A stretch of DNA of 64,000 nt. It comes from Promethearchaeota archaeon Loki_b31 (GTDB taxonomy: Archaea; Asgardarchaeota; Lokiarchaeia; Sigyniarchaeales; SOKP01). Shown here piece after piece: positions 4,659-28,296 of this stretch (positions are counted from its first letter, which is position 1; each line of letters starts with the position of its first letter). The stretch lies in NCBI GenBank assembly GCA_005222975.1, contig NJBI01000004.1, positions 66,179 to 130,178 of the forward strand. Reading direction: 5' to 3'. The notes under the pieces were generated by a model. It had not been told where the DNA came from. It ran no database searches and saw only the letters and a program-made list of their open reading frames with translations. The position numbers and the translations under genes were made by a program.

Positions 4659-4894
4659 AAAAATCTTAAATTCTTTTTTTTTTTCTTATTATTATATTGT
4701 TTATTTTCTAATTATGTCAGAAATTTAAAATTAGGACATAAAGATACAACATATCTCTTCGAATAACAAAAAATATTAGAGGAAATTTTATTTTTCATTG
4801 TCGTTGAGTTAAACTGTTAGAATATAAAGAGTAATAATAAATAGAAAGTAAGAGGTAATTAAATATACGTCCTTGGTATTGGCCTATTGAGGGT

Positions 4895-5350
4895 ATGCCC
4901 AAAAAATCCGAGCCGTTTACGTGGATTGTTAAGGAAAAAATGGCAGCAAGTTGGTGGCCTGATCCGCCGGTTTTTGAAAAGTACAAAAAAGAAGGAATCT
5001 CAGTCGTAATCAATTGTTCGGAATTTGATAACAGAAAAAATATCCCTAACGGATTTAAATATTATCATATAAATGTTCCTGATTATGGATTACCAACAGA
5101 AAAGCAAATAGAAGATTTTCTGGTAATTTGTGAGAAACATAGACAAAATAATGAATCAATCGTTGTTCATTGTGTTGCGGGGTGTGGGAGAACCGGGCAA
5201 TTTATTGTAGCATGGGCTGCCAATAATGGATATATACCCGAACATATGGATCCCGTAAGATGGATACGAAAATATAGACCATGCAGTCTTGAGACTAAAG
5301 AACAAATGAATTTTGCGCGGAGAATAGCAAAAAAATATCAAAAAAACTGA
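4895..5350 (+). CDS. Dual-specificity protein phosphatase (Cdc14/KAP-like)
   Basis: HCVAGCGRTG (HCx5R), VPDYGLP acid loop, IRKYRPCSLETKEQ. Confidence 0.9.
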   Translation: MPKKSEPFTWIVKEKMAASWWPDPPVFEKYKKEGISVVINCSEFDNRKNIPNGFKYYHINVPDYGLPTEKQIEDFLVICEKHRQNNESIVVHCVAGCGRTGQFIVAWAANNGYIPEHMDPVRWIRKYRPCSLETKEQMNFARRIAKKYQKN

Positions 5351-5457
5351 TAATGTAAAGTATTTATTAGATTAATTTTATTAGATTAGTAATTTTGTAT
5401 TGAATAAGTTGTCATAAAAATATTTACATCTAAAATTCTTGATTATTTAGGGTTATT

Positions 5458-6612
5458 ATGAATAAGGAAGATTATATTTACATGATATTAGATAATGTGT
5501 TGGTCTATAACATTAATCTTCCTACTGAACTTCAAAGTAACGGATTGAACAGCCATCTTAATAAATTTGACGAGAAAAATCTTGTTATAATTGCGGGCTT
5601 TACCAAAAACTTCTTGGAGCACTTTTTAATAGTTTCAAACGGTAAAACACAGCAAGATGTCGCCGAACTTTTAAAAAAAATGGAAAAAATTTCCTATATG
5701 GTTGGACCAATAGGGAACCTAAGCTATTTAACCAGCGATCAAATCGATCACATACTTACCAAAATAAATTCTCTTAAAATAATTGAAATTAACGAAGAGA
5801 AAATTAGTTTGCTTGCAGACGATCGACTAAGGGAACAATTTGGGGGCACAAGCACTTACAGTACTTCGGAAGCTTTGGAAAACCAACTAGCAAGTGCTGC
5901 TTTTTACTTAATGAATATGGGATACTCTCGAGAGGACATACAAGAAAGATTTAACGAAGTTAGACAAGATCCTACGAAATTAGAAGCTCTTTTTAATCTA
6001 AAACAGAGAGAAATTTATAGCACACCTTCTGAAATCCAACAAGGTTCTTTACCATCTCCACCGAGCCATCAAGAAACACCCATCGATCAAAGTCAAGATT
6101 TGAACGAAACAATTGCGCGTCATATACAATCAATTCACCAAGAGATAACAGAGGAGAGAGCGCAAAAGGTTGAAGTAATCGTTGAGCAAATAAAAGCACA
6201 TGTTAGAGATAACATGAGCGAGCTCCAACAAAAAGTGTTTAGAAAAATGCACCCAGATAGATTAAACCGAGCGTTGAAGACGCTCAAAACAACAAAAAGA
6301 AAATCAAAACGGATGAATTTATATATAGAATGGTATACAGCTAGTTTACTTCTTTCTAAAATAGAGTTAAAAGTAGAGCACTGGCAAGTTTCGTCTACGG
6401 CAGGTCATGGAAGCGCAGGCGTTTATACGGCCGGATTAGATTTTTCTCGATACGATAACATTATCCGTGAATTTTCGGATGGAAAGCTAACTAAAGTTGT
6501 TAATATTGCTAAACGAATTCTGCAAAACCCAACTAAAAAAGCCATTCAAAAGCTTGGTCAAGATCTCATAGCAGAAACGGGATTTGACGAGCATCTATAC
6601 TTTACAGATTAA
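5458..6612 (+). CDS. Hypothetical protein with a possible central UBA-like helical motif
   Basis: 384-aa ORF containing LMNMGYSREDI followed by a P/Q/S-rich linker. Confidence 0.75.
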   Translation: MNKEDYIYMILDNVLVYNINLPTELQSNGLNSHLNKFDEKNLVIIAGFTKNFLEHFLIVSNGKTQQDVAELLKKMEKISYMVGPIGNLSYLTSDQIDHILTKINSLKIIEINEEKISLLADDRLREQFGGTSTYSTSEALENQLASAAFYLMNMGYSREDIQERFNEVRQDPTKLEALFNLKQREIYSTPSEIQQGSLPSPPSHQETPIDQSQDLNETIARHIQSIHQEITEERAQKVEVIVEQIKAHVRDNMSELQQKVFRKMHPDRLNRALKTLKTTKRKSKRMNLYIEWYTASLLLSKIELKVEHWQVSSTAGHGSAGVYTAGLDFSRYDNIIREFSDGKLTKVVNIAKRILQNPTKKAIQKLGQDLIAETGFDEHLYFTD

Positions 6613-6661
6613 ATTTGGAACTTTATTAAAGAACATTTAAAATAAAAATAATAATATTTTT

Positions 6662-8278
6662 TTATTCTTTCTTAAAAACTGATCTACCCCTTATAATCGT
6701 TTCAAGAACGCGAATTTCTTTAATCTCATCTTTAGGAACTTCTAATGGGTTTTTATCTAATATAACAAAATCAGCAAGTTTTCCTACTTCTATGCTCCCC
6801 TTAATGTTTTCCTCAAAGGCAGCGTATGCAGCGTTAATAGTATAGGTTTTTAAAGCCTCTTCCATAATTAAAATCTCTTCTGGAATAAAACCATTTCTAG
6901 TTACTAAAGCATGTAATCCTAAGATAGGGCTAGGATCTTCGATCGGACAATCTGATCCTGAAGCAAGAACGACGCCCGCATCAACAATTGATTTCATTGG
7001 ATAAGTATACTTACATCGTTCTTCGCCGAGCCGTTTTACCAACCAGGTGTATTCTGAATTAATAAAGGGTGGTTGACACGAAGCAATTACGCCATAAGTA
7101 GCCATATCTTTAATAACATCCTTAGTTAGCATAGAGGCGTGCTCAATTCTATGGCGATGGTCGTTCCGAGGAAATTCCGTTAAAAGCTTCTTATATAAAT
7201 CCATGGCTATTCGGTTTCCTTTATCTCCGATTGCGTGAATCCCAATTTGAAAACCATTGTTATGGGCTACAACCATCTTCTCGTAAATTGCTTCCTCCTC
7301 AACAACACAAAATCCACACGCTCCTGGCTCATCTGAAAAGGAGTCGAACATACATGCTGTTTTTGCTCCAAAAGTACCGTCGAGAAATAGTTTTAAAGCA
7401 CCAACTTTAAACTTACTATCTTTCTTTCCACCATCTAAGGGAGGTTTTCTTAATTTGAGCAATTTTTTAGGTTTCTCAGTATTGATTAAAGCGTACCAAT
7501 TTTGTAAAATACTATTTTGGATTGATTTACGTAAGGGTAGTTCCATTGCTCCTGCATCACCAAATTCTCCCGTACTATCGGCACTAAGTATACCGTGGAG
7601 CGATGTCAATCCTTTCTGAGCGAAATTCCTAAAAGCTTTAACAGCCGCTTCTTTTATTTTATCTACACTTGGAAATGACATTTTAGATAAAATGATGTCT
7701 AATGCTTTCTCAGATATGACACCTGTAAGATTTCCATTACTATCTTTTCGTATTTCGCCACCTTCAGGAATTATTGTATGCTCGTCTATTTTTGCTAGCT
7801 TTAACGCTTTGGTGTTTGCGATGCCTATATGTCCGTCATATCTCAACACAAAAACAGGATGATCGGGGCATGCTTCGTCTAAATCTCCCTTATTAGGTAA
7901 CTTTGGAACATCGAATTTTTCCTCGCATAGATTAAATACTATCATAAGCTCATCTTTGTTTCTTTCTTTTGATGCTTTCACTAAATATTCTTTAAGCTCT
8001 TTAATACTTTTCACATCTGATACATCAGGACTTAATAAATAAAAAATATAAATAATCGGATGTAGATGACAATCAATAAATCCTGGAAGCAAAGAGTGAC
8101 CCTTTAAATCAATAAGCGCAGATTCATTCCCTAAGACTTTTTTAACGTCTTCTAAATCACCAACAGATACGATCTTTTCGCCTTCAATTCCTATAGCCTC
8201 GACGAAGGGTTGATTTTCGTTTATAGTTACTATTGACCCTCCAAAATAAATTTTTTTTTCTAAATTTATCATGCTCAT
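6662..8278 (-). CDS. Amidohydrolase family 3 (YtcJ-like) metal-dependent hydrolase
   Basis: LPGFIDCHLH, KLFLDG, HAIGD, RHRIEH, GSDCP, GSIEVGKLADF. Confidence 0.93.
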   Translation of the reverse strand: MSMINLEKKIYFGGSIVTINENQPFVEAIGIEGEKIVSVGDLEDVKKVLGNESALIDLKGHSLLPGFIDCHLHPIIYIFYLLSPDVSDVKSIKELKEYLVKASKERNKDELMIVFNLCEEKFDVPKLPNKGDLDEACPDHPVFVLRYDGHIGIANTKALKLAKIDEHTIIPEGGEIRKDSNGNLTGVISEKALDIILSKMSFPSVDKIKEAAVKAFRNFAQKGLTSLHGILSADSTGEFGDAGAMELPLRKSIQNSILQNWYALINTEKPKKLLKLRKPPLDGGKKDSKFKVGALKLFLDGTFGAKTACMFDSFSDEPGACGFCVVEEEAIYEKMVVAHNNGFQIGIHAIGDKGNRIAMDLYKKLLTEFPRNDHRHRIEHASMLTKDVIKDMATYGVIASCQPPFINSEYTWLVKRLGEERCKYTYPMKSIVDAGVVLASGSDCPIEDPSPILGLHALVTRNGFIPEEILIMEEALKTYTINAAYAAFEENIKGSIEVGKLADFVILDKNPLEVPKDEIKEIRVLETIIRGRSVFKKE

Positions 8279-15071: not shown

Positions 15072-16391
15072 ATGAACGATATTTCGAAAAAAATGCCATT
15101 ATTGTCAATTATTCTATTTGTTTTAATCATTACGCTAATAAATTCTGTATCGAATATGATTTCGCCGAATTTACTCGTGATTTCAAATTATTTCGGGTTT
15201 GGAGGTGATACTGCACCTATTGGAGTACTTACTTTCTCTTTTATGATTTTTACTGGGATAACGATGTTAATTTTTGGATATTTGGCAGATAAAATCGTTA
15301 GAAAATGGATTGTGTTTTTTGGTTCATTAATATTTTCCATATTTTCGCTTTTTACTATAACTGTTCCAACTGGAACTATTGGTTATTCAGTTTTTTTCTT
15401 CTTAACTATCTTAACAGGAATAGGATATGGCGCATTAATTCCGAGCATTTTTTCGTTAATGGGGGATATGGTCTCGAGTGAGGATCGCTCTAAAGGCTTT
15501 TCGTTTTTCTCGATCGCATCTTTATTTGGAATAGTTTTTGGTAGCGCTTTAGCTACATATGCTGGCAGTACTGATTGGAGATTCCCCTTTCTAGTAATTG
15601 GCATCGTTGGAATTCTAGCATCGTTATTATTTTTGCTTTTTAAAGAACCTTCTCGTTTGGGTAAAGATCACTCCTTTGATATAGACGCTGTCGATTACTC
15701 TTATAGGATAAAACTATCAGATGTAAGGATAATTTTTAAAAAGAAGGCTAACATTTGGTTAGTTGTTAATTTTGTAGATACGATTCCTACCGGCATTATA
15801 CTAACCTTACTTTATGCATATATGGAAGTATATCATGGGATTACCGCGGATGTGACTGTGCTAATTTTCTTAATTATCCTCGTAAATATCATACTTGGGA
15901 CTGTAGTGTTTGGGTATATTGGAGACAAGAAGTTTAAAAAAGGTAATAAAAAAGCGAGGGTTCTTTTAGCGTTATTTGGCAATATTGCACCTATTCCATT
16001 TCTATTCGCCGCATTAATTATTCCGTTTAGCGCTCCTAATTTATTTCCAGGCTTATTAATTTGGATCGTACTATTCAGTATTGGAATGTTTACAAATGGA
16101 GCAGTAAACGGGAACTGGTATGCCACAGTCGTAGACTTAAACCTACCAGAAAACCGTGGAACTGTGTTGGCAACCTCAAATTTTTTTGACATCATTGGAC
16201 GGGCGATTGGTCCTTTAATCGGAACCATTATCGCAGATATATTCGGTTTTGTTATTGGAATGATGATTTCAATTTTCTTTTGGATTTTTATTCCCTTTTT
16301 CTGGATTCCAGTCCTTAAAAATGTCGTAAGAGAAATTGAATCTACAGAGAAAGTATTTGACGAGAGAATAAAATCTCTAACTAATACTTAA
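15072..16391 (+). CDS. MFS transporter
   Basis: About 12 hydrophobic segments, with motif A GYLADKIVRK and PENRG. Confidence 0.92.
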   Translation: MNDISKKMPLLSIILFVLIITLINSVSNMISPNLLVISNYFGFGGDTAPIGVLTFSFMIFTGITMLIFGYLADKIVRKWIVFFGSLIFSIFSLFTITVPTGTIGYSVFFFLTILTGIGYGALIPSIFSLMGDMVSSEDRSKGFSFFSIASLFGIVFGSALATYAGSTDWRFPFLVIGIVGILASLLFLLFKEPSRLGKDHSFDIDAVDYSYRIKLSDVRIIFKKKANIWLVVNFVDTIPTGIILTLLYAYMEVYHGITADVTVLIFLIILVNIILGTVVFGYIGDKKFKKGNKKARVLLALFGNIAPIPFLFAALIIPFSAPNLFPGLLIWIVLFSIGMFTNGAVNGNWYATVVDLNLPENRGTVLATSNFFDIIGRAIGPLIGTIIADIFGFVIGMMISIFFWIFIPFFWIPVLKNVVREIESTEKVFDERIKSLTNT

Positions 16392-16473
16392 AAAATCCTT
16401 TTTTTTATCATTTGTCAAATTGGTTTTTTCATTTAATATTAATTTAAGAAAAAAAAAAGAATTAAAATTTAAA

Positions 16474-16875
16474 TTAAATTAGGATAATATATAGGGTAAT
16501 ACCAAATAGCACAACCAGCAATATAGAAACAATTATAAATAGTATAAAAGCTATAACTGTAACTACTATCGCTCCTAAAAATCCAGTATGGTGCCGTCCG
16601 CTAATGATTAACCACGCAGTAACTAAAACTATGATCCATGCTAACCAACCACCCAGAAACAGAAATGTAAGAGCATAAATAATGGTTAAGATGAACGCCG
16701 TTATAACAATTTGTCCGAATTCTTTGTGTTTCGCTTTACTGAAAAAACTTAAGGCAAGCTTAAGAAATAGTGCCATTATTATAAGAAAGATCAAATAAAA
16801 AATAAGATACCACATTATTCCTTCAAGAGTGCTAAAAGTTTGAGCCCAATCTACGTTGAAAATATCAAATATCAT
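16474..16875 (-). CDS. Small integral membrane protein
   Basis: 133 aa with about four hydrophobic helices. Confidence 0.75.
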   Translation of the reverse strand: MIFDIFNVDWAQTFSTLEGIMWYLIFYLIFLIIMALFLKLALSFFSKAKHKEFGQIVITAFILTIIYALTFLFLGGWLAWIIVLVTAWLIISGRHHTGFLGAIVVTVIAFILFIIVSILLVVLFGITLYIILI

Positions 16876-17180
16876 ATAAAAACCTTGTTTTTAATTTTTA
16901 ATATATTCTTTTTTAAAATTTCATGAATATTTAATTTATTCTTTATTTAATTTAGGTTATAAATTTAATTTGAAAAAAACGTATGAATTAAATTATGAAA
17001 GAATTATATCGGATACGCATGAGTTTTAATAATAAAGAAGGAGTAAAGTTCTGGAACAATTTATAGATTTTTTATCCACTCTTTAAAGAATCTCCTATTT
17101 TGATTGATAAATGAAGATTTTTAAATAACATTCTATATTTCTAGTTTTTATTAGGAGAAAATTTTTTGAATGGATGTATT

Positions 17181-18152
17181 ATGACAAAAGAGAAAAAACA
17201 AAAGGAACAGGTTAATGGTAGTTTTGATTTATCCGATAAGGATGAATATAACCACGATTGGGGAAAGTTTCCTCCATTCCATAACGAGAGTTGGTACTTC
17301 AATTTTATTGATCGCCCAAATAAAGTTTTTTTTATTACTAGATTATCTTACAACATGGATAAAAAAAAGTCTCTGGTTTTAGTTTTGCCGATAATTGATG
17401 GTAAGGTTAGAGTTTATTTTAAAGAAATTCCTCTTGAAAAAATGCCTGCTAATTGGGAAATCGATAAGAAAGTAAAGTATTACTGCATCAAACCAATGAA
17501 GCAATGGAGAATTAAATTCAAAAATAGTCAAGTTGATTTAGATGTTAACCTTGAGGGAAGGTTTCCAGTATTTAATTCAGCTGCGGGTACAGATCCTTTA
17601 GCATTTCTTAAGGAGGACTATACTAAGACAGAGCAAGTATTTGCTCAGATGCATTATGAGCAACCTATGATAGCTACAGGAACTTTGATCCTGAAAAAAA
17701 AGGGGGAAGTAATTGAAACGCGAACCATTAAAGGTTTCGGTCATCGCGATCACAGCTGGGGCATTAGAGAGTGGGGCGGGATTGATTCGTGGAATTGGGT
17801 TGTTGCCCAGTTTGAAGATGAGACAATTAATTTTTACAAAGCTGAAGCCCTTGGTGAAGAAAAACAAGATGGAATAATTTATTCTAAAGGCGCTGATAAT
17901 ATTAGAATTACAAACATAGAAGTGACCACAAAAACGAAAGAAAACGAAAAAACACCTGTTTCATCAACATTTATCATAACGGATGAAAATGGAAAGAAAA
18001 GAACCATAGAATCAAAAACAATATTTTCGCAATATTTACCTCTTCCATCCGAGAAAGGATTAACTGAAGTTTACGAGCAAGTAGCAGTATTCACTTACAA
18101 TGGAAAGGAAGGCGATGGCATTTCGGAGTATTTATCCACAACGCGGGATTAA
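17181..18152 (+). CDS. AttH/CrtC/tocopherol-cyclase-like double beta-barrel protein
   Basis: NESWYFNF, HYEQ, GHRDHSWGIREW, WNW, GDGISEY. Confidence 0.75.
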   Translation: MTKEKKQKEQVNGSFDLSDKDEYNHDWGKFPPFHNESWYFNFIDRPNKVFFITRLSYNMDKKKSLVLVLPIIDGKVRVYFKEIPLEKMPANWEIDKKVKYYCIKPMKQWRIKFKNSQVDLDVNLEGRFPVFNSAAGTDPLAFLKEDYTKTEQVFAQMHYEQPMIATGTLILKKKGEVIETRTIKGFGHRDHSWGIREWGGIDSWNWVVAQFEDETINFYKAEALGEEKQDGIIYSKGADNIRITNIEVTTKTKENEKTPVSSTFIITDENGKKRTIESKTIFSQYLPLPSEKGLTEVYEQVAVFTYNGKEGDGISEYLSTTRD

Positions 18153-18317
18153 CGCTATGAACTGAAGTTTGAACTATTTTTTTTTACTTTTTATTATTAT
18201 TTAATCGGTTATGTTTTTATATCTTTTTATGAATAATCATTCATAAAAAATTAGATCTTATATCACAAAAATTGATCGTATAAAATAAAATATAAATAAT
18301 TTATGTGATGACATTAA

Positions 18318-19685
18318 CTATTCATCTTGTAAAAAATAATAAAATGGGTCTGATCTTGCGACTCTTTTACTTCTAAACATTCGCGTAACAATGGGATGTA
18401 CCCCTTTGTATTTTTCTAAAGCTGTAATGTACAATTTCTCTACTTTTGTTTCAGCTAGGTTAGACTTTATTTTTTTCCCTAATTTATCAATGTAAAACTT
18501 TATTTTATCTTTGTCGATTAAGTCAGTTTTAAGTGGTTTGCCCGATGCATAGTCAAAAGCCCAAGTCCAGTTAAATTTATCTTCTATACCTGCGTATTGG
18601 GCGTACACACCTAAGACGATATTAGCATAAAGGTGACTCCCCAGCATCAATCTTTTAGTAAAGTTCCATTTCGACATATTAAGATATAATTCTTTCGTGG
18701 CACTTTTTGCAAATTTCGACAGTTCCTCTAAAATATTAAGCGAGAGGGGTTTTAATTCACCTAAATAATCAGGATATCTAAGATCTTTGGGGTGCGATAA
18801 TTCTCTCGTCCAAATCCCTATTGATGTTATTTTTGAAGAATAATCGGTTGGATCGGCAAATAAAGTGCCCCAATCGTTAAACTCGATTTTGTTCATATCT
18901 TTTAGCGTCATTCCAAATATCACATTTGAAAACGGTGCAATATTGGTGATTTTATATGGCATATTTCCAGTCATATCTATTCCATACATTACATCTCCAG
19001 TGTATAGTTCTATGAATTCTTTGAATATTAAAGGTTCAGTGTTGTCTTTAAAATAATATGGTCCATGCTCAGATATAGTAAATCTACACTCGGCTTGGGA
19101 AAGGAAACTATAGATGGTTAAATGGGCGATGGTTTGCTTTAAACGCTTTGTTATCTCTTTATTATTATTTATAGGGATCATATTACCTTTTAATTTTTCA
19201 ATATAATCGTCAGAAAGGCATGTAAGTCTTTTATTTTTCAATATTAGAGTCTCGTCATTGAGATAATTGGGACTCAATCTTTTCCAAAAGTCAAGAACGA
19301 ATTTAGTTTCTTTTTTCTTCGTTTCTGGCTCAACAACGATATTAGTTTCGCCACCTTTTTTTTTATTTAGGTTATCGTAAATAACTTGAGCTCGACCATG
19401 CAAATACAACATACATGTAGAATAAAAACCCAAATGATTTAATCCTGGGCCCAAGGATTTCGATCTTCTGGCGAGCTCCTCAGGCGATATCTTACTTGCA
19501 ACTTCTTTTAAGATATTATAAAGATAAGATTGATCGTATAAAACATAACAAGCAACGTGAATGTAATGGTTTACAGGAAACATTTTACTTTCAACCATTC
19601 CACGCTTTAGAAAATTTGCTACAGTAGTCTTAGAAATCAACGCGATTAGTTCATTTGCTTCTTGGTCGCTAATATCACCTAACAT
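18318..19685 (-). CDS. Uncharacterised 455-aa protein, putative substrate-binding subunit of a split PEP-synthase-like enzyme
   Basis: Long ORF directly downstream of, and co-oriented with, the stand-alone phospho-His domain gene. SD GGAG upstream. The function is inferred from context only. Confidence 0.7.
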   Translation of the reverse strand: MLGDISDQEANELIALISKTTVANFLKRGMVESKMFPVNHYIHVACYVLYDQSYLYNILKEVASKISPEELARRSKSLGPGLNHLGFYSTCMLYLHGRAQVIYDNLNKKKGGETNIVVEPETKKKETKFVLDFWKRLSPNYLNDETLILKNKRLTCLSDDYIEKLKGNMIPINNNKEITKRLKQTIAHLTIYSFLSQAECRFTISEHGPYYFKDNTEPLIFKEFIELYTGDVMYGIDMTGNMPYKITNIAPFSNVIFGMTLKDMNKIEFNDWGTLFADPTDYSSKITSIGIWTRELSHPKDLRYPDYLGELKPLSLNILEELSKFAKSATKELYLNMSKWNFTKRLMLGSHLYANIVLGVYAQYAGIEDKFNWTWAFDYASGKPLKTDLIDKDKIKFYIDKLGKKIKSNLAETKVEKLYITALEKYKGVHPIVTRMFRSKRVARSDPFYYFLQDE

Positions 19686-19791
19686 ATAAACAACTCCTTA
19701 CAATTTGATATTTTTAAGATTTTAATTATTTAAACTCATTTTCTAAATATAATATTAGTAAATTTAAATGGAAAATAATTTTATTAATTAC

Positions 19792-20148
19792 TCAAATAAA
19801 TAAATAAATAATCCCCCTGTCTTCACTTTCCGTAATTATTTTTCCCTTTTTCCCCGTCAGTGAGGACAAATCGTCTATTAAAAAGTCTACATTCATTATA
19901 CAAGGTATTTCGAATTCTCTTGAAACTATGGCGAGATGTGAGCCTGCAGAACCGAGTGGACATAATACTCCTGCCAAATCTGATAAAATTGGACCAAGAG
20001 TAGTAGTACCAGAATCTTCGACTATACATATTTTCCCGTTGGCATTATCAAATAAATTTATAACGTCTTCTACAGATTGGATAAACACTAATTCCCCTAT
20101 TGCTTCTGAATTGGACGAACAAGATTCACCTTCCCCAATTTTTTTCAT
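19792..20148 (-). CDS. Stand-alone PEP-utilising enzyme mobile (phospho-histidine swivel) domain
   Basis: GSAGSHLAIVSREFEIPCI matches the GGxTSHAAIVARExGIP signature, with the His retained. Confidence 0.9.
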   Translation of the reverse strand: MKKIGEGESCSSNSEAIGELVFIQSVEDVINLFDNANGKICIVEDSGTTTLGPILSDLAGVLCPLGSAGSHLAIVSREFEIPCIMNVDFLIDDLSSLTGKKGKIITESEDRGIIYLFI

Positions 20149-20350
20149 TTAAATCAACAAAAAATTTTATTTTTAATAATATCAATCTATTATTTTTTAA
20201 ATTTATAGTTATTTATCGTAATTATTTAATTTTTTATTTAACTTCTTAGAAATTTATACATAAATATATATTGTTTTACCTTATCTTTGAAACTAAATAT
20301 TTAAAAATATAGTAAACAAATTATATTATTTACTATTTTAATGAATATCG

Positions 20351-21340
20351 ATGATAGGATCAGAATTCGTTGTATTTTTTCCAGAGGCAAAGCCTGATAC
20401 TGCCTTATTAGGGGGGAAAGGTTCTAATTTAATCAAATTAATTAAGATGAAACTCTCTGCAAAAGTTCCCCCCGGATTTATAATCAATACAAATTGTTTC
20501 AAGAAATTCCTTAAAGAATCGAAATACTACGACCAATTGAGTAATTTATTGGAAAAGACCTTAAATCCAAAAGAAATTTTACACCATTCAGCCAAAATTA
20601 CAAAATTAATATTAGAATCAAAAATTCCTAAAAAAATAGTTGAAAGCATCGAAGGAGCTTTTGATAAATTGGTTAAGGGGAAGGATATAGGCTTATCTTT
20701 TGCCGTAAGATCTTCAGCAACAATCGAGGATTCAAGCAAATTCTCCTTTGCTGGACAAGCAGAGAGCTATTTATATAATCTTACTTTTCATGACTTATTA
20801 CAATCGTTAAAAAATTGCTGGGCATCTTTATTTTCACCTCGTGCAATATTATATATGCTTCATATGAAAAAGTTGGGCGTAAATTTCTCGTTGAAGAATA
20901 TTCATATGGCAGTTATTGTTCAGAAAATGGTTAATTCACAAATATCAGGAGTTTTATTTACATCTAATGTGGTCAATAGCGATTCAAATCAAATGTTGAT
21001 CAATTCCACATGGGGACTTGGTAATACGATTGTTGATAATTTAATTATCCCAGATTCTATTATAATTAAGAAAAATAAATTTGAAGTTTTAAAAAGGATT
21101 ATCGGTAAAAAAAAGAAAAAGTCGATTAAAAACCCTGAAGGCGCACATACTGTTATAGTAGAAACATACCCAAAATTAAGGACAATTTGCTCTTTAAACG
21201 ATAATCAACTGCGCCAACTTCATAATTTAGGATTAAAAATTGAAAAAGAATTTAATTTTCCTCAAGATATTGAATGGGCGATAGAAAACGATGAAATCTT
21301 TATATTACAAAGCCGACCAATCACTACTTTAAAAAAGTGA
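20351..21340 (+). CDS. Stand-alone PEP/pyruvate-binding (PPDK_N) ATP-grasp domain of the PEP-synthase family
   Basis: LGGKGSNL, VPPGF, AVRSSATIED..FSFAGQ, MAVIVQKMV, PQDIEWAI...ILQSRPIT. The ORF ends there, with no swivel or pyruvate domain. Confidence 0.92.
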   Translation: MIGSEFVVFFPEAKPDTALLGGKGSNLIKLIKMKLSAKVPPGFIINTNCFKKFLKESKYYDQLSNLLEKTLNPKEILHHSAKITKLILESKIPKKIVESIEGAFDKLVKGKDIGLSFAVRSSATIEDSSKFSFAGQAESYLYNLTFHDLLQSLKNCWASLFSPRAILYMLHMKKLGVNFSLKNIHMAVIVQKMVNSQISGVLFTSNVVNSDSNQMLINSTWGLGNTIVDNLIIPDSIIIKKNKFEVLKRIIGKKKKKSIKNPEGAHTVIVETYPKLRTICSLNDNQLRQLHNLGLKIEKEFNFPQDIEWAIENDEIFILQSRPITTLKK

Positions 21341-21417
21341 AGAATTAAAATTAACTTTTTCATGTTTAATAATATTAAAAGAAAAAAAGAGATTTATTTA
21401 CATTAAATTTAATTAAA

Positions 21418-22209
21418 TTAAATACCGATATCCCACTTTAGAAAAGAATACGGAATGAATTTTTCTTGTTCTACTTCGGCTACTACGTATCCCTTTTTCA
21501 TAGAGTTATCTCCCTTTAAATACGCAGCTCCTAATACTCTTTCCACCTCTATTTCGCCCCAAGGATCGCTCTCAGATGACCTTAATGTAATTTCTGCGTT
21601 CCCCAGTTTTAATTCCTTAGGTCTTAATGGAACCTCTTCTCTTATTAACCGCGGGTTGTAATCAAAACCCTTACCATCTGGAGAAGGAAAATGCTTAAAA
21701 TTATATGTTACTGACACAATTTCAGAGCCATCACCAATTGTGCCCGTAAAAAGCTCCATAGCATCAGGTGCATTTAATCTACCGTTCAGTTTTGCCTTAA
21801 CTTCGTAATATCGCGTTCCTTGGCGCTCTATCCATCCTTCAACGATTCTCTTTTCACGTTTAAAATAGATATCTGCCATTTTTTTTGGATATCCAAATAC
21901 CTCTCGACCAGCGACTAACGCTTGGTCGTCTGTAACCGGCATTGATAGACAATAACCTCCTTCTACACCGTCAAATTCTGCACTTAGAAAAAGAGCGCCT
22001 TCGTTATATGTCACTCCGAAATTTGTTTTAGGATAATAAGCGACAAACGCGTAGGCAATTGGAGTGTCCGTAGGTTTTAACGGAGGCGGTAGCAACCGTT
22101 TTATTATTTCGGGTTTTGTCTCCCAATACACGACCAGCAGTTCTGCGTCGTAGAAGTCAGCGGTTTCTCTTTTAGTCATAAACCCGCCCGAAGATCTTAA
22201 AAAACTCGT
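21418..22209 (-). CDS. Acetoacetate decarboxylase-like family protein (probable ACG start at 22209; first ATG 22179)
   Basis: LPPPL, YNEGAL, GREVFGYPKK (Schiff-base Lys region). SD GAGGTGA lies 7 nt before ACG. Confidence 0.88.
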   Translation of the reverse strand, partial: TSFLRSSGGFMTKRETADFYDAELLVVYWETKPEIIKRLLPPPLKPTDTPIAYAFVAYYPKTNFGVTYNEGALFLSAEFDGVEGGYCLSMPVTDDQALVAGREVFGYPKKMADIYFKREKRIVEGWIERQGTRYYEVKAKLNGRLNAPDAMELFTGTIGDGSEIVSVTYNFKHFPSPDGKGFDYNPRLIREEVPLRPKELKLGNAEITLRSSESDPWGEIEVERVLGAAYLKGDNSMKKGYVVAEVEQEKFIPYSFLKWDIGI

Positions 22210-22295
22210 TTTATTTTCACCTCAAATTAGATTTTTACTAATATTATTATTAATATTTCAATTTTTAATTTAAAATTACTGGATTGATTATTTAT

Positions 22296-23510
22296 TTATA
22301 ACAATGCTTGATCTATTAGTTCCATTAGATCGACCATCTTAATATTTGAATTTAAAGCGATTATTGCATCTGTTAGATTTCTATAACAAAATGGGCATAT
22401 ACTTATGAGGTAATCTGCGCCAGTCTCCTCAGCTTCCTGAACTCTAGTCTTAGCAATTTCTAATGCTAAATCGGGAAAGCCTTTCTTTACGCCTCCACCA
22501 GCTCCGCAACATTTAGCGTTCTCTTTAATCGTTTTCATCTCGGTTAAATTAGATATTTTTGATAATATCTCTCTTGGTTCTTCGTAAAGCGGTGAAAGGC
22601 CAGAATTTCTTCCTGTATGACAGGGATCGTGATAGGTCGTATTAATTTCTAAATTATTAAGAGTTATATCTTTTTCCTCTAAAAAAGATTTGATATACTC
22701 GATTGTGTGAAACACTCTAATTTCTAAGTCCTCAATAAGGTCAGCGTAATCTACTTTTAAAGTCCTGTAACAACCCGCGCAACTCGTAATTATAGTGTTA
22801 ACGCCACTTTTTTTGAACAACTCGTAGTTTTTCGCAGCCACTGAATTGAATGCTTTCATATCCCCAGTTCTCTTACCTACGCTCCCGCAACATACTTCAT
22901 GTTCTCCAAAAATAGAAAAGTCAACTCCAAGTTTACGAAGTACTTTTGCTGTGTTTATAGCGACTGCTTGAATATCTGGAGTTAGAGCAGCAGTGCACCC
23001 AACAAAATAAAGCACATCCGCTTTTTCAGAATAGGCATTTTTTACCTTAAAATCAAGTTTTTCCCTCCAATTCTTTTTCTCTTTGTTATCTCTCTGATAT
23101 GGATTTAATAATTCAACCATTGCCTGATTCATTGGTATGTGTGCTTCCAGACCACAACCTGCGTCAATTAATTCCGCTCTTAAAGCCTCGTAAATAACTG
23201 TGTTATCCATATCATAGGCACAAGCTTCAGAGCACGCGTTACAAGTTGGACATTGATAAATAACTTCAGCCATATCTTTGCTTAGCTCTAATTTTCCTTG
23301 CCAAAGAGAGCGAATAATTTGCATTTTTCCCCTTCCAAAGAAAGCTTCAAAGCCAGATGTGTGATCTCTTGCCACGCAAACGCCCCATTTTTGCGGATCT
23401 GAAGTATAATCTGTAGCTTCTCGACAATCTCCACAACTTATACATTGTAAAATTGTCGGGCCAATTTTACTTAAATGCTTAAACTTTTCGTTAGGATTTA
23501 TTTCAGTCAT
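22296..23510 (-). CDS. Fe-S oxidoreductase with ferredoxin-type and two CCG domains (GlcF/HdrD-like)
   Basis: CISCGDC, CPTCNACSEAC, YFVGC, EVCCG, SCAGC, YHDPCH, CCGAGGG, CPFC. Confidence 0.92.
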   Translation of the reverse strand: MTEINPNEKFKHLSKIGPTILQCISCGDCREATDYTSDPQKWGVCVARDHTSGFEAFFGRGKMQIIRSLWQGKLELSKDMAEVIYQCPTCNACSEACAYDMDNTVIYEALRAELIDAGCGLEAHIPMNQAMVELLNPYQRDNKEKKNWREKLDFKVKNAYSEKADVLYFVGCTAALTPDIQAVAINTAKVLRKLGVDFSIFGEHEVCCGSVGKRTGDMKAFNSVAAKNYELFKKSGVNTIITSCAGCYRTLKVDYADLIEDLEIRVFHTIEYIKSFLEEKDITLNNLEINTTYHDPCHTGRNSGLSPLYEEPREILSKISNLTEMKTIKENAKCCGAGGGVKKGFPDLALEIAKTRVQEAEETGADYLISICPFCYRNLTDAIIALNSNIKMVDLMELIDQALL

Positions 23511-23521
23511 CTTATTTCCAT

Positions 23522-25057
23522 CTACTCTTCATTTTTAATAATATTTTCTGTTATATCACTATCGTAACTATACATATGAAATTTATTTGGAGACAATAAA
23601 AAATCAGGGTCTACAACCCTTTTCATATCTTTAAAAAATTGTAAAAATTCGGGAGTATAAGCGTTGGCTTCTACTATTGACTGAGAGATTGATTCTCCTA
23701 ACCAATAATGTACACCCCCATACCGAACTTGATACCTTACCTTTTTATGCCATATATCCATAGCGACTTGACGTTGATCATCTACATTTTCGGCATTAAA
23801 ACCACCAGCAAAAATACAATGACCATTAGGTAATAGATGGATTGATCTAGCGAATAATGAAAAACTTTGAGCCGGGAAATTACCTCTATTTTCGTTATCA
23901 AACCCCTCGTTTAACTCTTTCTTATCTGCTATGGACGAAATTAGTATTTTATGACAAGTTGTACAGGATATTTTAGGAGGCGCTAAGGAGATAAATTTGT
24001 TGAAATAGCTATAAGGAAATTTAAAATCAAACTTCCAGTCCTTAGCTAATTTTAGATCTAGATCAATTTCTGTCCATTCAAAAGGTCTTGCAACATTATC
24101 TTTAATCATTATTCTATTTACTTGTTCAATATAGACGTCCAAAATTCGCTCGTCAAACGCTTCAAGTATAAACATAAAAACAGGTCCACTAAGTCTAGCT
24201 CTTTTTGGGGGTCGAATTTTAGCTTGGGAAGCTAAGAGTTGTACTACTACGCGTGGGTTTATATAAAGATCGTGTATTCCGTCTTTAACTTCTTTTTGTA
24301 GTTTATACATTAATTCAAAAACTTTATTATAATCATCTTTTTTAAGAATGTAATTTTTCTGTATCTTATAAGGCGAATTAGGGAATAACCTTAAAGAACA
24401 TTTAGTTTTAATGCCCATAGTTCCTGCATCTCCCATAAATAGCCCCGTAAAATCGGGAGCAACGCCGTACCTACAAAAAGGTTTTGCGTACTTATTAGCT
24501 GCAGCTCCAGTCCAAATTATCGTTCCTTGCGGATTTGGCAATACTACCTCAACACCTAAGCAAATGTTTGGAACTAAACCATATTTAGTGGACCCAAAAC
24601 CAGCGGTGCTGTTAGAAAGACCTCCTCCAATTGTGGCTGAAAATCCACTTCCGGGACCAAGAACACCTGTCGTTAAATCTTTTTTGTATAGTTCTGATAA
24701 TAAAGCCCCCCAGGTTACTCCACATTCTACTTCACAATAGAAATCCTTTTCATTTATTTCAATAATTTTATTCATTCGCGTAAGATCAATAAGGATTCCC
24801 CCTTCAATTGTCGCGCCTCCAACTAAATCGGCCCCTCCTCCTCGCGGTACTATAGGTATTTTATAATTATTAGCAATTTTTACAATATCTGAAACTTCTT
24901 CCGTAGTCTCTGGACGTACTATGATATCAGCCCATCTATCAGGAAAGGCAGGATCAACGTTTCTAGAATAGGCAGCTTTCATGAAATCTTTATCGGAGAT
25001 ATATTCTGTTCCAACCGCTATTTCAATTTCTTTGTATACCTTATCAATTTTGGACAT
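23522..25057 (-). CDS. FAD-linked oxidase, VAO/PCMH family (GlcD/D-lactate dehydrogenase-like), copy B
   Basis: IVRPETTEEV, PRGGGADLVGG, ATIGG, GDAGTMGI, VDPDFLLSP. Confidence 0.9.
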   Translation of the reverse strand: MSKIDKVYKEIEIAVGTEYISDKDFMKAAYSRNVDPAFPDRWADIIVRPETTEEVSDIVKIANNYKIPIVPRGGGADLVGGATIEGGILIDLTRMNKIIEINEKDFYCEVECGVTWGALLSELYKKDLTTGVLGPGSGFSATIGGGLSNSTAGFGSTKYGLVPNICLGVEVVLPNPQGTIIWTGAAANKYAKPFCRYGVAPDFTGLFMGDAGTMGIKTKCSLRLFPNSPYKIQKNYILKKDDYNKVFELMYKLQKEVKDGIHDLYINPRVVVQLLASQAKIRPPKRARLSGPVFMFILEAFDERILDVYIEQVNRIMIKDNVARPFEWTEIDLDLKLAKDWKFDFKFPYSYFNKFISLAPPKISCTTCHKILISSIADKKELNEGFDNENRGNFPAQSFSLFARSIHLLPNGHCIFAGGFNAENVDDQRQVAMDIWHKKVRYQVRYGGVHYWLGESISQSIVEANAYTPEFLQFFKDMKRVVDPDFLLSPNKFHMYSYDSDITENIIKNEE

Positions 25058-25093
25058 GATTCAATATTAACATATAATAGATTTGTAATATAA

Positions 25094-25894
25094 TTAATAC
25101 CAATCCCATTTGAGAAACGAATAGGGTAAAAAATCTCTTTGATCTACCTTAGCAACAACCTCTCCTGGAAGCATAGTATTGTCTGTTTTAAGATATAACG
25201 CGCCTAGTACCTTTACAACCTCAACTTCAGCCCATGGATCGTGCACAGTTGAGTTTAACTTTATTTCAGCTACACCCATTTCCATCGATATTGGACGAAC
25301 CGAAGTTTCCTGCTTAACTAACCACGGATCGTAATCAAAACCCTTTTTATTAGGTGCTGGAAAGTACTTGAAGTTATAATTAATCGTATTTTTCTTTCTT
25401 CCCGGAAGAAGACCCAACTCTTTTATGATACTTGGTGTTTCGCTATCGTTGAATTTACCGGTTAAATTTGCTTTAATTTCAATATTCTTAACTCCAAGAC
25501 GCTCAGACCAAGCTTCAACATATTTATCCTTTCGATGAAAATGTATTTTAGCTATTTTTTTAGGGAATCCAAAAATCTCCCGACCTCCAATCATCGCGCG
25601 ATCGTCGTCAACGGGCATAGCTAAGTAATAATTTCCTTGTAAGCCATTATATTCACATCTTAACGTCAAAGCACCTTCAAGATACGGTAATCCTTGATTG
25701 GTACTAGCGTAATTTGCTATAAATGACATAACTACTGGTCTACTAACAGGCTTTAAAGGAGGTGGTAAAATCTTTTCGACTATCTCAGGTTTAGTCTCCC
25801 ATAAAACGGTTATCATTTCAGCACTTTTAAATTCGGTCGTCCTTAACCTTTCTTTTCTCTCTTCTATCTCTTTTATTGAACGCTTAAAACTAAT
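25094..25894 (-). CDS. Acetoacetate decarboxylase-like family protein, copy A (probable ATT start at 25894; first ATG 25816)
   Basis: LPPPL, YLEGAL, GREIFGFPKK. The N-terminal extension aligns with the paralog. SD AAGGTGA lies 6 nt before ATT. Confidence 0.88.
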   Translation of the reverse strand: MSFKRSIKEIEERKERLRTTEFKSAEMITVLWETKPEIVEKILPPPLKPVSRPVVMSFIANYASTNQGLPYLEGALTLRCEYNGLQGNYYLAMPVDDDRAMIGGREIFGFPKKIAKIHFHRKDKYVEAWSERLGVKNIEIKANLTGKFNDSETPSIIKELGLLPGRKKNTINYNFKYFPAPNKKGFDYDPWLVKQETSVRPISMEMGVAEIKLNSTVHDPWAEVEVVKVLGALYLKTDNTMLPGEVVAKVDQRDFLPYSFLKWDWY

Positions 25895-25895
25895 T

Positions 25896-27434
25896 TTAAA
25901 TCACCTTATTTTCCTCTTTTACAAAATGTTCTGATGGATCGTGATCATAACTGTACATGTGAAACTTTTTAGGACTTAGCAAGTAATTTGGATCTACAGT
26001 TTTTTTCATATCTTTGAAAAATTGAATAAATTCACGCGTATAGGCATTAGCCTCAACAATAGATTGAGAGATTGCTTCTCCAAGCCAATAATGTACGCCT
26101 CCATATCGAACTTGAAGGCGTAGCTTTTTGTGCCACATATTCATGGATTTTTCGCGTTGTTCATCTATGTTATCGGCATTGAATCCGCCTACAACTACAC
26201 AATTACCATTAGGTAAAAGAAATATAACCGTTGCAAATAATGCAATACTTTGTGGTGGAAACTCATCCCGGTAGTTAATATCAAATTGATTGCTTAAATT
26301 TGCTACTTTAGGTAAAGCAGAGATTGGAACTTTATGACAAGTGGTACACGATATTTTCGGTGGGTTTACTGATATAAATTTATTAAAGTAGTGATAAGCA
26401 TATTTTAAATTAAATTCCCAATCTTTGGATAGAGGCTCTTCGGGGTCAATTTCTTGCCATTCGAACGGTCGAGCATCGTCTTTCATAAGATTTTCAATTT
26501 GTTCAAGGTAAACATCTAACACCCGCTCATCTGTAGATTCCACTAATATCGAAAAGACCGGTCCTTTTAATCTCGGTCTTTTGACGGGTTTATTTTCCAC
26601 CATACCTGCCAATAATTGAACTACAATAACAGGAATTACAAGTACATCGTGTAATCCGTCGCGTATTTCTTTCCGTAATTTATACATGAGCTCAGAAACT
26701 TTATTATAATCGTTCTTCTTTAACATATAATATCGTTGCGCTTTAAACGGCGTCTCGGGATGCAATCGTAGGAAAGCTTTAGTCTTAATACCCATAGTTC
26801 CTACATCCCCCATAAATAAACCCGTAAAATCGGGAGCCACTCCATATCTACAAAAAGGCTTTGCGTATTTATTAGCCGCCGCTCCTGTCCTAATTATCGT
26901 TCCTTGTGGATTTGGTAAAACTACTTCGACACCTAAACAAATATCAGGAATAACACCGTATTTTGTGGACCCAAAACCTGCAGTACTATTAGAAAGTCCA
27001 CCTCCGATAGTGGCTGAATAGCCACTCCCAGGACCGAGTACTCCTGTTGTTAAACCTTGTTTTTGTAATTCCGAAAGCAACTCACCCCAGGTGATTCCGC
27101 ATTCTACCTCGCAATAGTAATCGTTTTCATTTATTTCAATAATTCTATTCATTCTCGTTAAGTCTATCAGAATTCCACCTTCGCTTACGGACCCCCCTAC
27201 GAGGTCTGCGCCACCACCTCTGGGGATCATTGGAATTTTGTACTTATTAGCGATTTTCACGATATCAGAGACCTCTTCAGTTGATTCTGGCCTAACTATA
27301 ATATCTGCCCATCTATCTGGAAACGCCGGGTCAACATTTCGAGAATATGCCGCTTTCATAAAGTCTTTGTCTGAAATATAATCGGAACCGATTATTCCTT
27401 CTATTTCCTTATACGCATCCTTTACTTTTGACAT
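25896..27434 (-). CDS. FAD-linked oxidase, VAO/PCMH family (GlcD-like), copy A
   Basis: Close paralog of 23522-25057, sharing DKDFMKAAYSRNVDPAFPDRWADIIVRP. The MSKVK start matches the paralog's MSKID. Confidence 0.9.
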   Translation of the reverse strand: MSKVKDAYKEIEGIIGSDYISDKDFMKAAYSRNVDPAFPDRWADIIVRPESTEEVSDIVKIANKYKIPMIPRGGGADLVGGSVSEGGILIDLTRMNRIIEINENDYYCEVECGITWGELLSELQKQGLTTGVLGPGSGYSATIGGGLSNSTAGFGSTKYGVIPDICLGVEVVLPNPQGTIIRTGAAANKYAKPFCRYGVAPDFTGLFMGDVGTMGIKTKAFLRLHPETPFKAQRYYMLKKNDYNKVSELMYKLRKEIRDGLHDVLVIPVIVVQLLAGMVENKPVKRPRLKGPVFSILVESTDERVLDVYLEQIENLMKDDARPFEWQEIDPEEPLSKDWEFNLKYAYHYFNKFISVNPPKISCTTCHKVPISALPKVANLSNQFDINYRDEFPPQSIALFATVIFLLPNGNCVVVGGFNADNIDEQREKSMNMWHKKLRLQVRYGGVHYWLGEAISQSIVEANAYTREFIQFFKDMKKTVDPNYLLSPKKFHMYSYDHDPSEHFVKEENKVI

Positions 27435-27510
27435 TATAATCATAAATTTGTTTGAAAGTAATAATTATAAGATAGAACTTGTGAATTAATAAAAGTATAT
27501 GAAAAAAAGA

Positions 27511-28296
27511 TTATTTTAATTTCTTGACTCGTTTAGCTATTTTCTTTTTAATATCTTCGTAAGATGGCGGGGGTCCCGTTCTAATCTCCTTCCCGTCAAT
27601 AAAAAGTGCATCAGCGATTCCCCACTCCAAAAAAGTTTCCCTATTGAATGTATCTATTTCTGTAAAAATTACTTTATCTCCAAATTCGGAAGCTGCCCTT
27701 TTTGCTCTTTCAAAAACCATATTTTGAGCAGGGCACCAGCCATTTATAAACGCTGTCACTGATACCTTCCCTGGTATTTCTTTGGGCTTTTTCTTCTGCC
27801 TTATCATTTTAGGCGGAATAGCATCGTTGGAAAAAGGTTTCCATAGTAAAACGCTTATACTCTGCTTATCAACTTTAACATATCCTTGCTTTTTAAACCA
27901 AGAGGCTCTCATAAAGACAGGTATAGAAAGCCCCCATGCTACTAATCCTTTCGCACCCTTACTCCTTACATCTTCTTCAGCAGCTTTTATTAAACGCTTA
28001 CCGATTCCTTTCTTCTGGAAGTTCCCAACGCCCTCTTTGTAGCCGTGCACCCAGATACAATTTATAAAGTATAAATTATCGCCTTCTGCTGTTGAATATT
28101 CAAGAGGAACATATTGTATCATTCCTACTACTTTGTCGTCCTCAGTCACAGCAATTTTAACGCCAAGCCCTTTGTCTTTCATTTTGTTATACCAAAGCTC
28201 CTTGTGATCCCCAGCTTCTTTCATCTCGTCGATCCAATCTTCAAGACACATAAAATAAAGTCCGTTATATTTTTCCTCTAAATCAATTATTTTCGT
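27511..28296 (-). CDS. GNAT-family acetyltransferase with a C-terminal thioredoxin-like (YoaP-like) domain (probable ACG start at 28296)
   Basis: VGMIQY, INCIWV, FQKKGIGKRL (acetyl-CoA motif A), WFKKQGY, GWCP. Confidence 0.85.
   Translation of the reverse strand, partial: TKIIDLEEKYNGLYFMCLEDWIDEMKEAGDHKELWYNKMKDKGLGVKIAVTEDDKVVGMIQYVPLEYSTAEGDNLYFINCIWVHGYKEGVGNFQKKGIGKRLIKAAEEDVRSKGAKGLVAWGLSIPVFMRASWFKKQGYVKVDKQSISVLLWKPFSNDAIPPKMIRQKKKPKEIPGKVSVTAFINGWCPAQNMVFERAKRAASEFGDKVIFTEIDTFNRETFLEWGIADALFIDGKEIRTGPPPSYEDIKKKIAKRVKKLK

Follow-up and report, generated by a model that had tools for sequence, protein, structure and literature searches.

A 64,000-nucleotide stretch of the genome of Promethearchaeota archaeon Loki_b31 (hereafter the window; GenBank assembly GCA_005222975.1, contig NJBI01000004.1, positions 66,179 to 130,178 of the forward strand) encodes four neighboring proteins that probably form a conserved two-step system for the ATP-driven dehydration of an otherwise unreactive alcohol. 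We refer to them as G, a stand-alone ATP-grasp protein; S, a stand-alone swivel domain with a catalytic histidine; X, a 455-aa protein of an unnamed family; and D, a DUF7065/DUF7064 protein. The proposal builds on domain identities, gene linkage, gene fusions, the homology of D to 25-phosphosteroid lyase (25-PSL), and a predicted S–X complex that passed its controls, all of which were observed or computed here; from these we infer the chemical steps and the class of substrate.

Composition and conservation of the G/S/X/D locus

G (20351–21340, forward strand; 329 aa) matches the Pfam domain PPDK_N (PF01326) with an E-value of 1.5e-84 over positions 2–313 of the 328 in the profile, and its best NCBIfam matches are to the first ~330 residues of the PpsA, RPH, and PigC models. 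It is the proposed ATP-binding part, which would pyrophosphorylate His71 of S. The latter protein (19792–20148, reverse strand; 118 aa) matches PEP-utilizers (PF00391, E-value 5.5e-9) in Pfam and the swivel end of the PRK08296 models in NCBIfam; it carries catalytic His71 within a GSH motif and is the proposed phosphoryl carrier. X (18318–19685, reverse strand) is the candidate phospho-acceptor (substrate) site protein onto which the swivel would dock, while D (17166–18152, forward strand; 328 aa), convergent with X, is an Rv3169-related protein with a predicted double beta-barrel fold. A preliminary description, made from the nucleotide sequence and its open reading frames (ORFs), had reported G, S, and X with the sizes and strands that the ORF list gives, and the motifs it quoted are all present: GGKG, RSSATIEDSSKFSFAG, and DIEWA...LQSRP in G; GSHLAIVSRE in S; and ESKMFPV, SPEEL, LYLHGR, DFWKR, and FLSQAECR..HGPY in X. 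The module of these three genes stands, but the count of three does not, as the fourth gene, D, had been missed.

S and X are co-oriented across a 106-bp spacer of 13% GC (19686–19791) and are probably co-transcribed; fused or overlapping bacterial forms keep the same S–X order. S and G diverge from a second spacer (20149–20350), and the roughly 200 bp of AT-rich DNA described earlier measures 202 bp with 11% GC, against 32.5% GC for the window. This spacer contains several TATA-like hexamers on both strands and presumably holds the putative promoters of S–X and of G.

Alignment of 32 S sequences identified six invariant residues (G66, S70, H71, R77, E78, and P82). The threonine of the regulatory site usually found two residues before the catalytic histidine is replaced by glycine, as had been pointed out for the window protein (AGSH), and GSH is the rule across the S family. 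The same alignment contains a nearly invariant cysteine eight positions before the catalytic histidine (residue 63 of the window S; CxxGxxGSH), found in 30 of the 32 rows, including all stand-alone S proteins, at a position where the published swivel motif T/SxxGGxxxH has threonine or serine.

The window lies on contig C83, and the genome it belongs to measures 3.5 Mb at 92% completeness. The triosephosphate isomerase (TIM) barrel of pyruvate-using dikinases had been reported missing from the window, and indeed its Pfam domain, PEP-utilizers_C (PF02896), has no match in the neighboring ORFs scanned (15072–25057). Nor does it have a match in this 92%-complete genome as a whole, although the control was positive in 14 of 14 control genomes. 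Only two PPDK_N genes are present in the genome, namely G and the gene of a 909-aa RPH-like protein on another contig (C94).

In order to evaluate how widely these genes occur together, 151 Asgard genomes were searched, using profiles for X and D and the respective Pfam models for S and G, and linkage was counted by our reading of gene coordinates. X is present in 39 of the 151 genomes, which fall into five families and contain 59 full-length X genes. D lies within ~2 kb of every one of these 59 genes, usually in an X–D operon, and is the most constant partner of X; S lies within ~6 kb of 46 and G within ~7 kb of 31. Where X has no local S, the host genome has another complete set. Among 30 loci that were fetched and annotated, the commonest layout consists of an X–D pair transcribed divergently from an S–G pair, and the window layout, with G divergent from S–X and D convergent with X, is a variant within its own family, which includes a tandem S-X-S-X arrangement (locus L017). 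Stand-alone orthologs of G and S are intact in dozens of genomes, and at 26 of the fetched loci, spread over four Asgard families, G and S are immediate neighbors. Linkage of X homologs to swivel and ATP-grasp genes, which the preliminary description had proposed to examine, is thus found in five Asgard families. For the ATP-grasp gene it holds in most Asgard lineages, but a dedicated copy is missing from the neighborhood in one Asgard family and in the Acidimicrobiia.

The Loki_b31 genome contains a second locus on contig C34 (L010:6942–10510), where S (118 aa, reverse strand) is divergent from X (385 aa), followed by D (309 aa) and a further protein, F (284 aa). No ATP-grasp gene is found nearby, and the G of the window may serve both loci. 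F proteins (~289 aa) have an N-terminal region of 215 residues without assignment and a C-terminal 2x[4Fe-4S] ferredoxin domain, and are 65–89% identical across families. They are encoded beside the module in 17 of 30 loci (10 of 10 in family f7, 2 of 2 in f13, and 5 in f1; for example, L010:9656–10510, L016:7718–8587, and L024:8589–9458), and are missing at the window locus.

Other families show arrangements of their own. In family f12, a 152-aa dual-specificity/PTP-type phosphatase is encoded directly after X–D (L014:11411–11869; also L002:12994–13314 and three other f12 loci) and could be a proofreading or dephosphorylating partner. At one of these loci (L014:4577–8014), a 1145-aa protein with at least eight PAS domains sits between S–G and X–D. 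A complete genome of family f19 (G038) encodes, in order, X, D, a 208-aa ORF without assignment, S, and X (L012:4654–9478), with an extra copy of D 127 kb away without X and no stand-alone PPDK_N gene anywhere in the genome.

The X family and its predicted contact with the swivel

As had been reported from inspection, X has no assignable family: it has no match in Pfam and none in NCBIfam at E≤0.01. Its homologs comprise 178 proteins (90% clusters) in 96 clusters at 50% identity, all unnamed, and the close ones carry Promethearchaeota, Lokiarchaeota, or Helarchaeota names. The family core spans ~380 residues, to which the 455-aa form of the window adds a C-terminal extension; longer fused forms, of 798–2275 aa, did not turn up in a word search. 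Among 57 diverse members, two residues, R201 and Y210, are invariant, and R28, G97, R98, G208, P209, P279, and G349 are nearly so. The motifs quoted in the preliminary description constitute a signature of the family because they coincide with conserved positions across these 57 members.

The AlphaFold2 (AF2) model of X is confident (predicted local distance difference test score, pLDDT, 92.2; predicted template modeling score, pTM, 0.92), and fold searches were conducted with the model of the whole 455-residue chain. Foldseek against the PDB gave a best E-value of 0.75, VIA-align against 48,161 chains gave no Z≥5 (best Z 4.3, to the Cet1 triphosphatase over 89 residues), and a shape search of the ESM Atlas gave template modeling (TM) scores of at most 0.26. 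RPH chains are absent from the Foldseek and VIA-align matches of this whole-chain model. Searches of PDB sequences with phmmer and with a profile returned no relevant match, and a protein-atlas feature search scored at chance level (0.82). By these model-based and profile comparisons, the X family appears to have no detectable relative of known structure. At the level of sequence profiles, homology of X to the central domain of the Asgard RPH-like dikinases was rejected, as the hhalign probability between the X family and these domains is 0.3%.

Complex modeling, as suggested in the preliminary description, brought S and X together. The prediction scored 0.81, 0.79, and 0.81 in three runs, against 0.00 for the best of three controls; among known cases, 58 of 80 solved complexes and 2 of 110 mismatched pairs score this high, a calibration that is rough only, since our own alignments were used. 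The runs share at least 95% of contacts, with a partner pLDDT of at least 85. On the S side, the predicted interface comprises residues 65–71 (GSAGSH, including His71) and 74–80; on the X side, it comprises residues 27–36, 198–201, and 274–283, which contain the conserved R28 and R201, so that the catalytic histidine is placed at conserved residues of X. The result is unlikely to reflect memory of a similar complex because X has no solved relative. The model supports, but does not prove, binding of S to X at the face that carries His71.

Gene fusions join the same two proteins. An N-terminal swivel is fused to X in two proteins (P0183, 575 aa; P0185, 516 aa), and 19 Actinomycetota loci, mainly from Acidimicrobiia, have S either fused to X or overlapping it, with S first. 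The resemblance of X to bacterial proteins encoded next to stand-alone swivels, which the preliminary description had suggested, is real, as the Actinomycetota loci and a Burkholderia locus (below) show the pairing. The suggestion that X is the substrate-binding module of a split dikinase is likewise supported by linkage, by the swivel fusions, and by the S–X model, each of which is consistent with such a role.

D, fused dikinases, and homologs beyond Asgard archaea

D scores 53.1 bits against DUF7064 (cut-off 24.7) and 22.8 bits against DUF7065 (cut-off 27) in Pfam and, judged by its profile scores, appears to be a related but distinct subfamily with respect to Rv3169 and other DUF7065/DUF7064 proteins. 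Its AF2 model is a double beta-barrel (pLDDT 87) whose top Foldseek matches are the 25-PSL structures 9g4c, 9fzn, and 9g2i (9g4c_B: E-value 2.8e-14, probability 1.00, TM 0.71), followed by the Diels-Alderases Fsa2, Phm7, and CghA, and then by AttH and kievitone hydratase. A profile of 29 D proteins also matches the sequence of 9fzn (E-value 1.1e-9, residues 18–182), with the motif RDxSWGxR in common. As both an obligate neighbor of X and a lyase homolog, D suggests the fate of the phosphorylated product. A literature search on DUF7064 and on stand-alone PEP-utilizers and PPDK_N proteins returned nothing usable, and papers on Rv3169 only list the gene.

The same Asgard genomes carry RPH/PRK06241-like dikinases of ~910 aa, which contain an ATP-grasp domain, a 475-aa central domain, and a swivel in one chain. 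At all 16 of the loci fetched, a divergent D gene follows within a few bases, and gene coordinates show the pair in 20 of 21 genomes. For example, the Loki_b31 copy on contig C94 (L011:4379–8098) encodes the 909-aa dikinase (4379–7108) and, 18 bp further, a divergent 323-aa DUF7065/DUF7064 protein (7127–8098). The pairing of a dikinase with a D-type protein thus arose in two architectures. D follows the fused dikinases too, and X would therefore fill the functional slot of their central substrate-binding domain.

Homologs were also recovered outside the Asgard archaea. In Burkholderia ambifaria, D is encoded alongside a run of S (246 aa), X (726 aa), and a 590-aa protein with PPDK_N and swivel domains, and this module sits in a cluster of the polyketide synthase (PKS)/fatty-acid type with genes for PKS, KAS III, acyl carrier protein, and short-chain dehydrogenase/reductase proteins. 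An assignment of this cluster to afc (AFC-BC11) found no support in the AFC-BC11 biosynthesis paper, which lacks the terms dikinase, phosphoenolpyruvate, kinase, and phosphoryl; the genes of the two clusters were not compared. A Bathyarchaeia operon encodes, in order, a squalene-hopene-cyclase-like protein, S, X, and a cis-prenyltransferase-like protein. A bacterial contig (ENA ERZ23498364; that of protein P0156) encodes a 229-aa swivel protein and a 728-aa X homolog, with two pairs of ECH and HMGL/PYC_OADA carboxyltransferase genes and genes for BCCP, biotin carboxylase, an APH kinase, and an acyl-CoA synthetase as neighbors. Hydrophobic substrates of the isoprenoid, polyketide, or ketone type would suit these contexts, which do not single one out. 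The last contig resembles the phosphorylate-then-carboxylate pathways of the Hpe and Acv type.

Among the 19 Actinomycetota loci, D is found 2–5 kb downstream of S–X in 8, and a PPDK_N gene within 8 kb in none. ORF clustering is noisy in these high-GC loci, and the neighbors conserved there have housekeeping roles (malate dehydrogenase, Fpg, H+-PPase, SDH, and DedA).

In the window itself, the region beside G (21418–28296) contains duplicated acetoacetate-decarboxylase-family genes, FAD-binding oxidase genes, and CCG Fe-S genes. These were rejected as parts of the module, as they are not recurrent with it in other loci, and appear to be an unrelated neighboring cluster. The upstream major facilitator superfamily and thioredoxin genes were rejected on the same grounds.

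Proposed mechanism, alternatives, and significance

In the first step of the proposed reaction, G would use ATP to pyrophosphorylate His71 of free S, and the beta-phosphate would be kept, as homology and gene context suggest by analogy to PpsA, PPDK, RPH, and HpeHI. Phosphorylated S would then dock on X, which would supply a second active site around the invariant or nearly invariant R28, R98, and R201 and the HGPY strand, and would hand the phosphate on to the hydroxyl group of a small molecule bound there; the products would be AMP, Pi, and a phosphoester. In the second step, suggested by homology to 25-PSL, D would eliminate the phosphate and leave a C=C bond. The alcohol would most plausibly be tertiary or otherwise hindered, and a hydrophobic compound of isoprenoid or polyketide type is suggested by the D superfamily and by some of the gene contexts.

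Each half of this scheme has a known counterpart. Two-component dikinases with a free ATP-grasp protein are biochemically established and include HpeHI of Rhodococcus, CreHI of Corynebacterium, and PpsAB of Thauera/Aromatoleum, with AcvAB also listed (PMC12167813). As in these enzymes, the ATP-grasp domain is a separate polypeptide, a histidine swivel would carry the beta-phosphate to a non-pyruvate acceptor site, no TIM barrel is present, and the regulatory threonine before the catalytic histidine is missing. However, the swivel of those systems is the C-terminal end of an RPH-like substrate-binding protein of ~70 kDa, whereas here it is free, or N-terminal in the fused forms, and X, unlike the RPH-like part of HpeHI, CreHI, and PpsAB, has no PRK08296 or PRK06241 match in NCBIfam. 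Their substrates are phenols from which the phosphate is later removed by a hydrolase, whereas the conserved partner here is a lyase homolog. The fused RPH and PRK06241-type dikinases share the ATP-grasp and swivel chemistry, and their ~910-aa Asgard members also precede a DUF7065/DUF7064 gene, but RPH is a single chain of ATP-grasp, central, and swivel domains, to whose central domain X is not detectably homologous. PEP synthase and PPDK share the PPDK_N and PEP-utilizers domains and presumably a phosphohistidine mechanism, and differ in having the PEP-utilizers_C barrel, the threonine of the TSH motif, and parts that are not split into genes.

For the second half, the closest precedent is found in Sterolibacterium denitrificans, where the kinase 25-HSK phosphorylates a tertiary alcohol and 25-PSL eliminates the phosphate, the two together achieving an ATP-dependent dehydration (PMC8449060, PMC11061730). 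The logic of a kinase followed by a phosphate-eliminating lyase is the same, and D is a homolog of that lyase in both fold and sequence. The lyase substrate is made there by a separate kinase (PMC8449060), a 43-kDa monomer that forms ADP, belongs to the phosphotransferase family, and is encoded at a site not adjacent to the lyase gene, whereas the Asgard hosts encode a predicted three-part dikinase of the AMP-forming type beside the gene of the lyase homolog.

Several observations weigh against the proposed dehydration. 25-PSL is known to work with an APH-type kinase that forms ADP, not with a dikinase. D scores 65.3 bits on the NCBIfam model Rv3169_fam, below the cut-off of 150; its invariant residues H163 and E165 have no counterpart in 25-PSL; and its superfamily includes hydratases and pericyclases, so that lyase chemistry is not assured. 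In addition, G is not universal. Asgard family f19, including a complete one-contig genome, has S, X, and D and no stand-alone PPDK_N, and no PPDK_N was found within 8 kb of S–X in Acidimicrobiia; in both groups the ATP donor step must be in trans or different.

The observations on D bear on an alternative that we regard as unlikely, in which G, S, and X activate the substrate as proposed, but D carries out another carbocation-type or pericyclic reaction, such as a cyclization, hydration, rearrangement, or PigC/RedH-like condensation. In keeping with this, the fold neighbors of D after 25-PSL are Fsa2, Phm7, CghA, AttH, and kievitone hydratase, some of the D invariants are not common to 25-PSL, PigC and RedH ligate with the same ATP-grasp and swivel parts that NCBIfam matches reveal here, and terpene-cyclase-like and prenyltransferase-like genes flank S–X in Bathyarchaeia. 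However, 25-PSL is the sole solved protein that D matches by sequence and also its top fold match, the RDxSWGxR motif common to the two is conserved, and a phosphotransfer system predicts exactly a phosphate-eliminating lyase as its partner.

The uneven distribution of G would be explained if S–X were a self-contained phosphoryl-exchange or phosphorelay unit, with X acting as a phosphomutase, transphosphorylase, phosphatase, or regulatory target, the donor being something other than ATP via G, and the adjacency of G being secondary. S–X, with or without D, does occur without a nearby PPDK_N gene in f19 and Acidimicrobiia, HpeH alone moves phosphate between phosphorylated and unphosphorylated substrates (PMC12167813), and a DSP/PTP-type phosphatase follows X–D in f12. 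We nevertheless find this improbable: stand-alone G immediately neighbors S at the 26 loci noted above; in Burkholderia, X is followed by a PPDK_N gene; and G has no other obvious client because the genome shows no TIM barrel. The genome also has no more than two PPDK_N genes. That the three genes are instead pieces of a decayed ppsA or PPDK, with X an unrelated neighbor, as PpsA models among the best NCBIfam matches of G might suggest and as the preliminary description had raised, is excluded for practical purposes by ORFs that are intact and remain separate in dozens of genomes across five Asgard families, by the lack of PEP-utilizers_C in the genome, by the fusion of X to S elsewhere, and by the clear constraint on the X family, with invariant residues across domains of life.

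The ATP-driven dehydration of an alcohol by G, S, X, and D remains the reading we favor, and it can be extended, in a tentative and rather doubtful form, to the hosts themselves. X may be the founding member of a structurally new class of phospho-acceptor domains that serve His-swivel dikinases, and G/S/X/D may be an ATP-driven dehydratase, or an ionizing system resembling a monophosphate terpene synthase, that acts on isoprenoid alcohols and remodels or degrades Asgard membrane lipids or other isoprenoid lipids anaerobically; the Fe-S protein F might then act on the alkene.

Dikinases of the PpsA, RPH, and HpeHI types are known to swap the acceptor domain, and to our knowledge every characterized non-pyruvate member uses an RPH-like domain. 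Here, the acceptor role would fall to a different, unnamed family, which is confidently modeled, for which no structural relative was found, and which is nearly always encoded beside a homolog of the recently solved 25-PSL. If this proposal is correct, phosphorylation followed by elimination would be a widespread, modular, and O2-free means of removing unreactive hydroxyls, built at least two times from dikinase parts, in a system that spans Asgard archaea, Bathyarchaeia, Actinomycetota, and Burkholderia. A function would be gained for the Pfam families DUF7065 and DUF7064 and for a family without a Pfam entry, and new biocatalysts for the dehydration of hindered alcohols would become available. 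With the Burkholderia ambifaria homologs, the hypothesis can be put to the test in an organism that is in culture.

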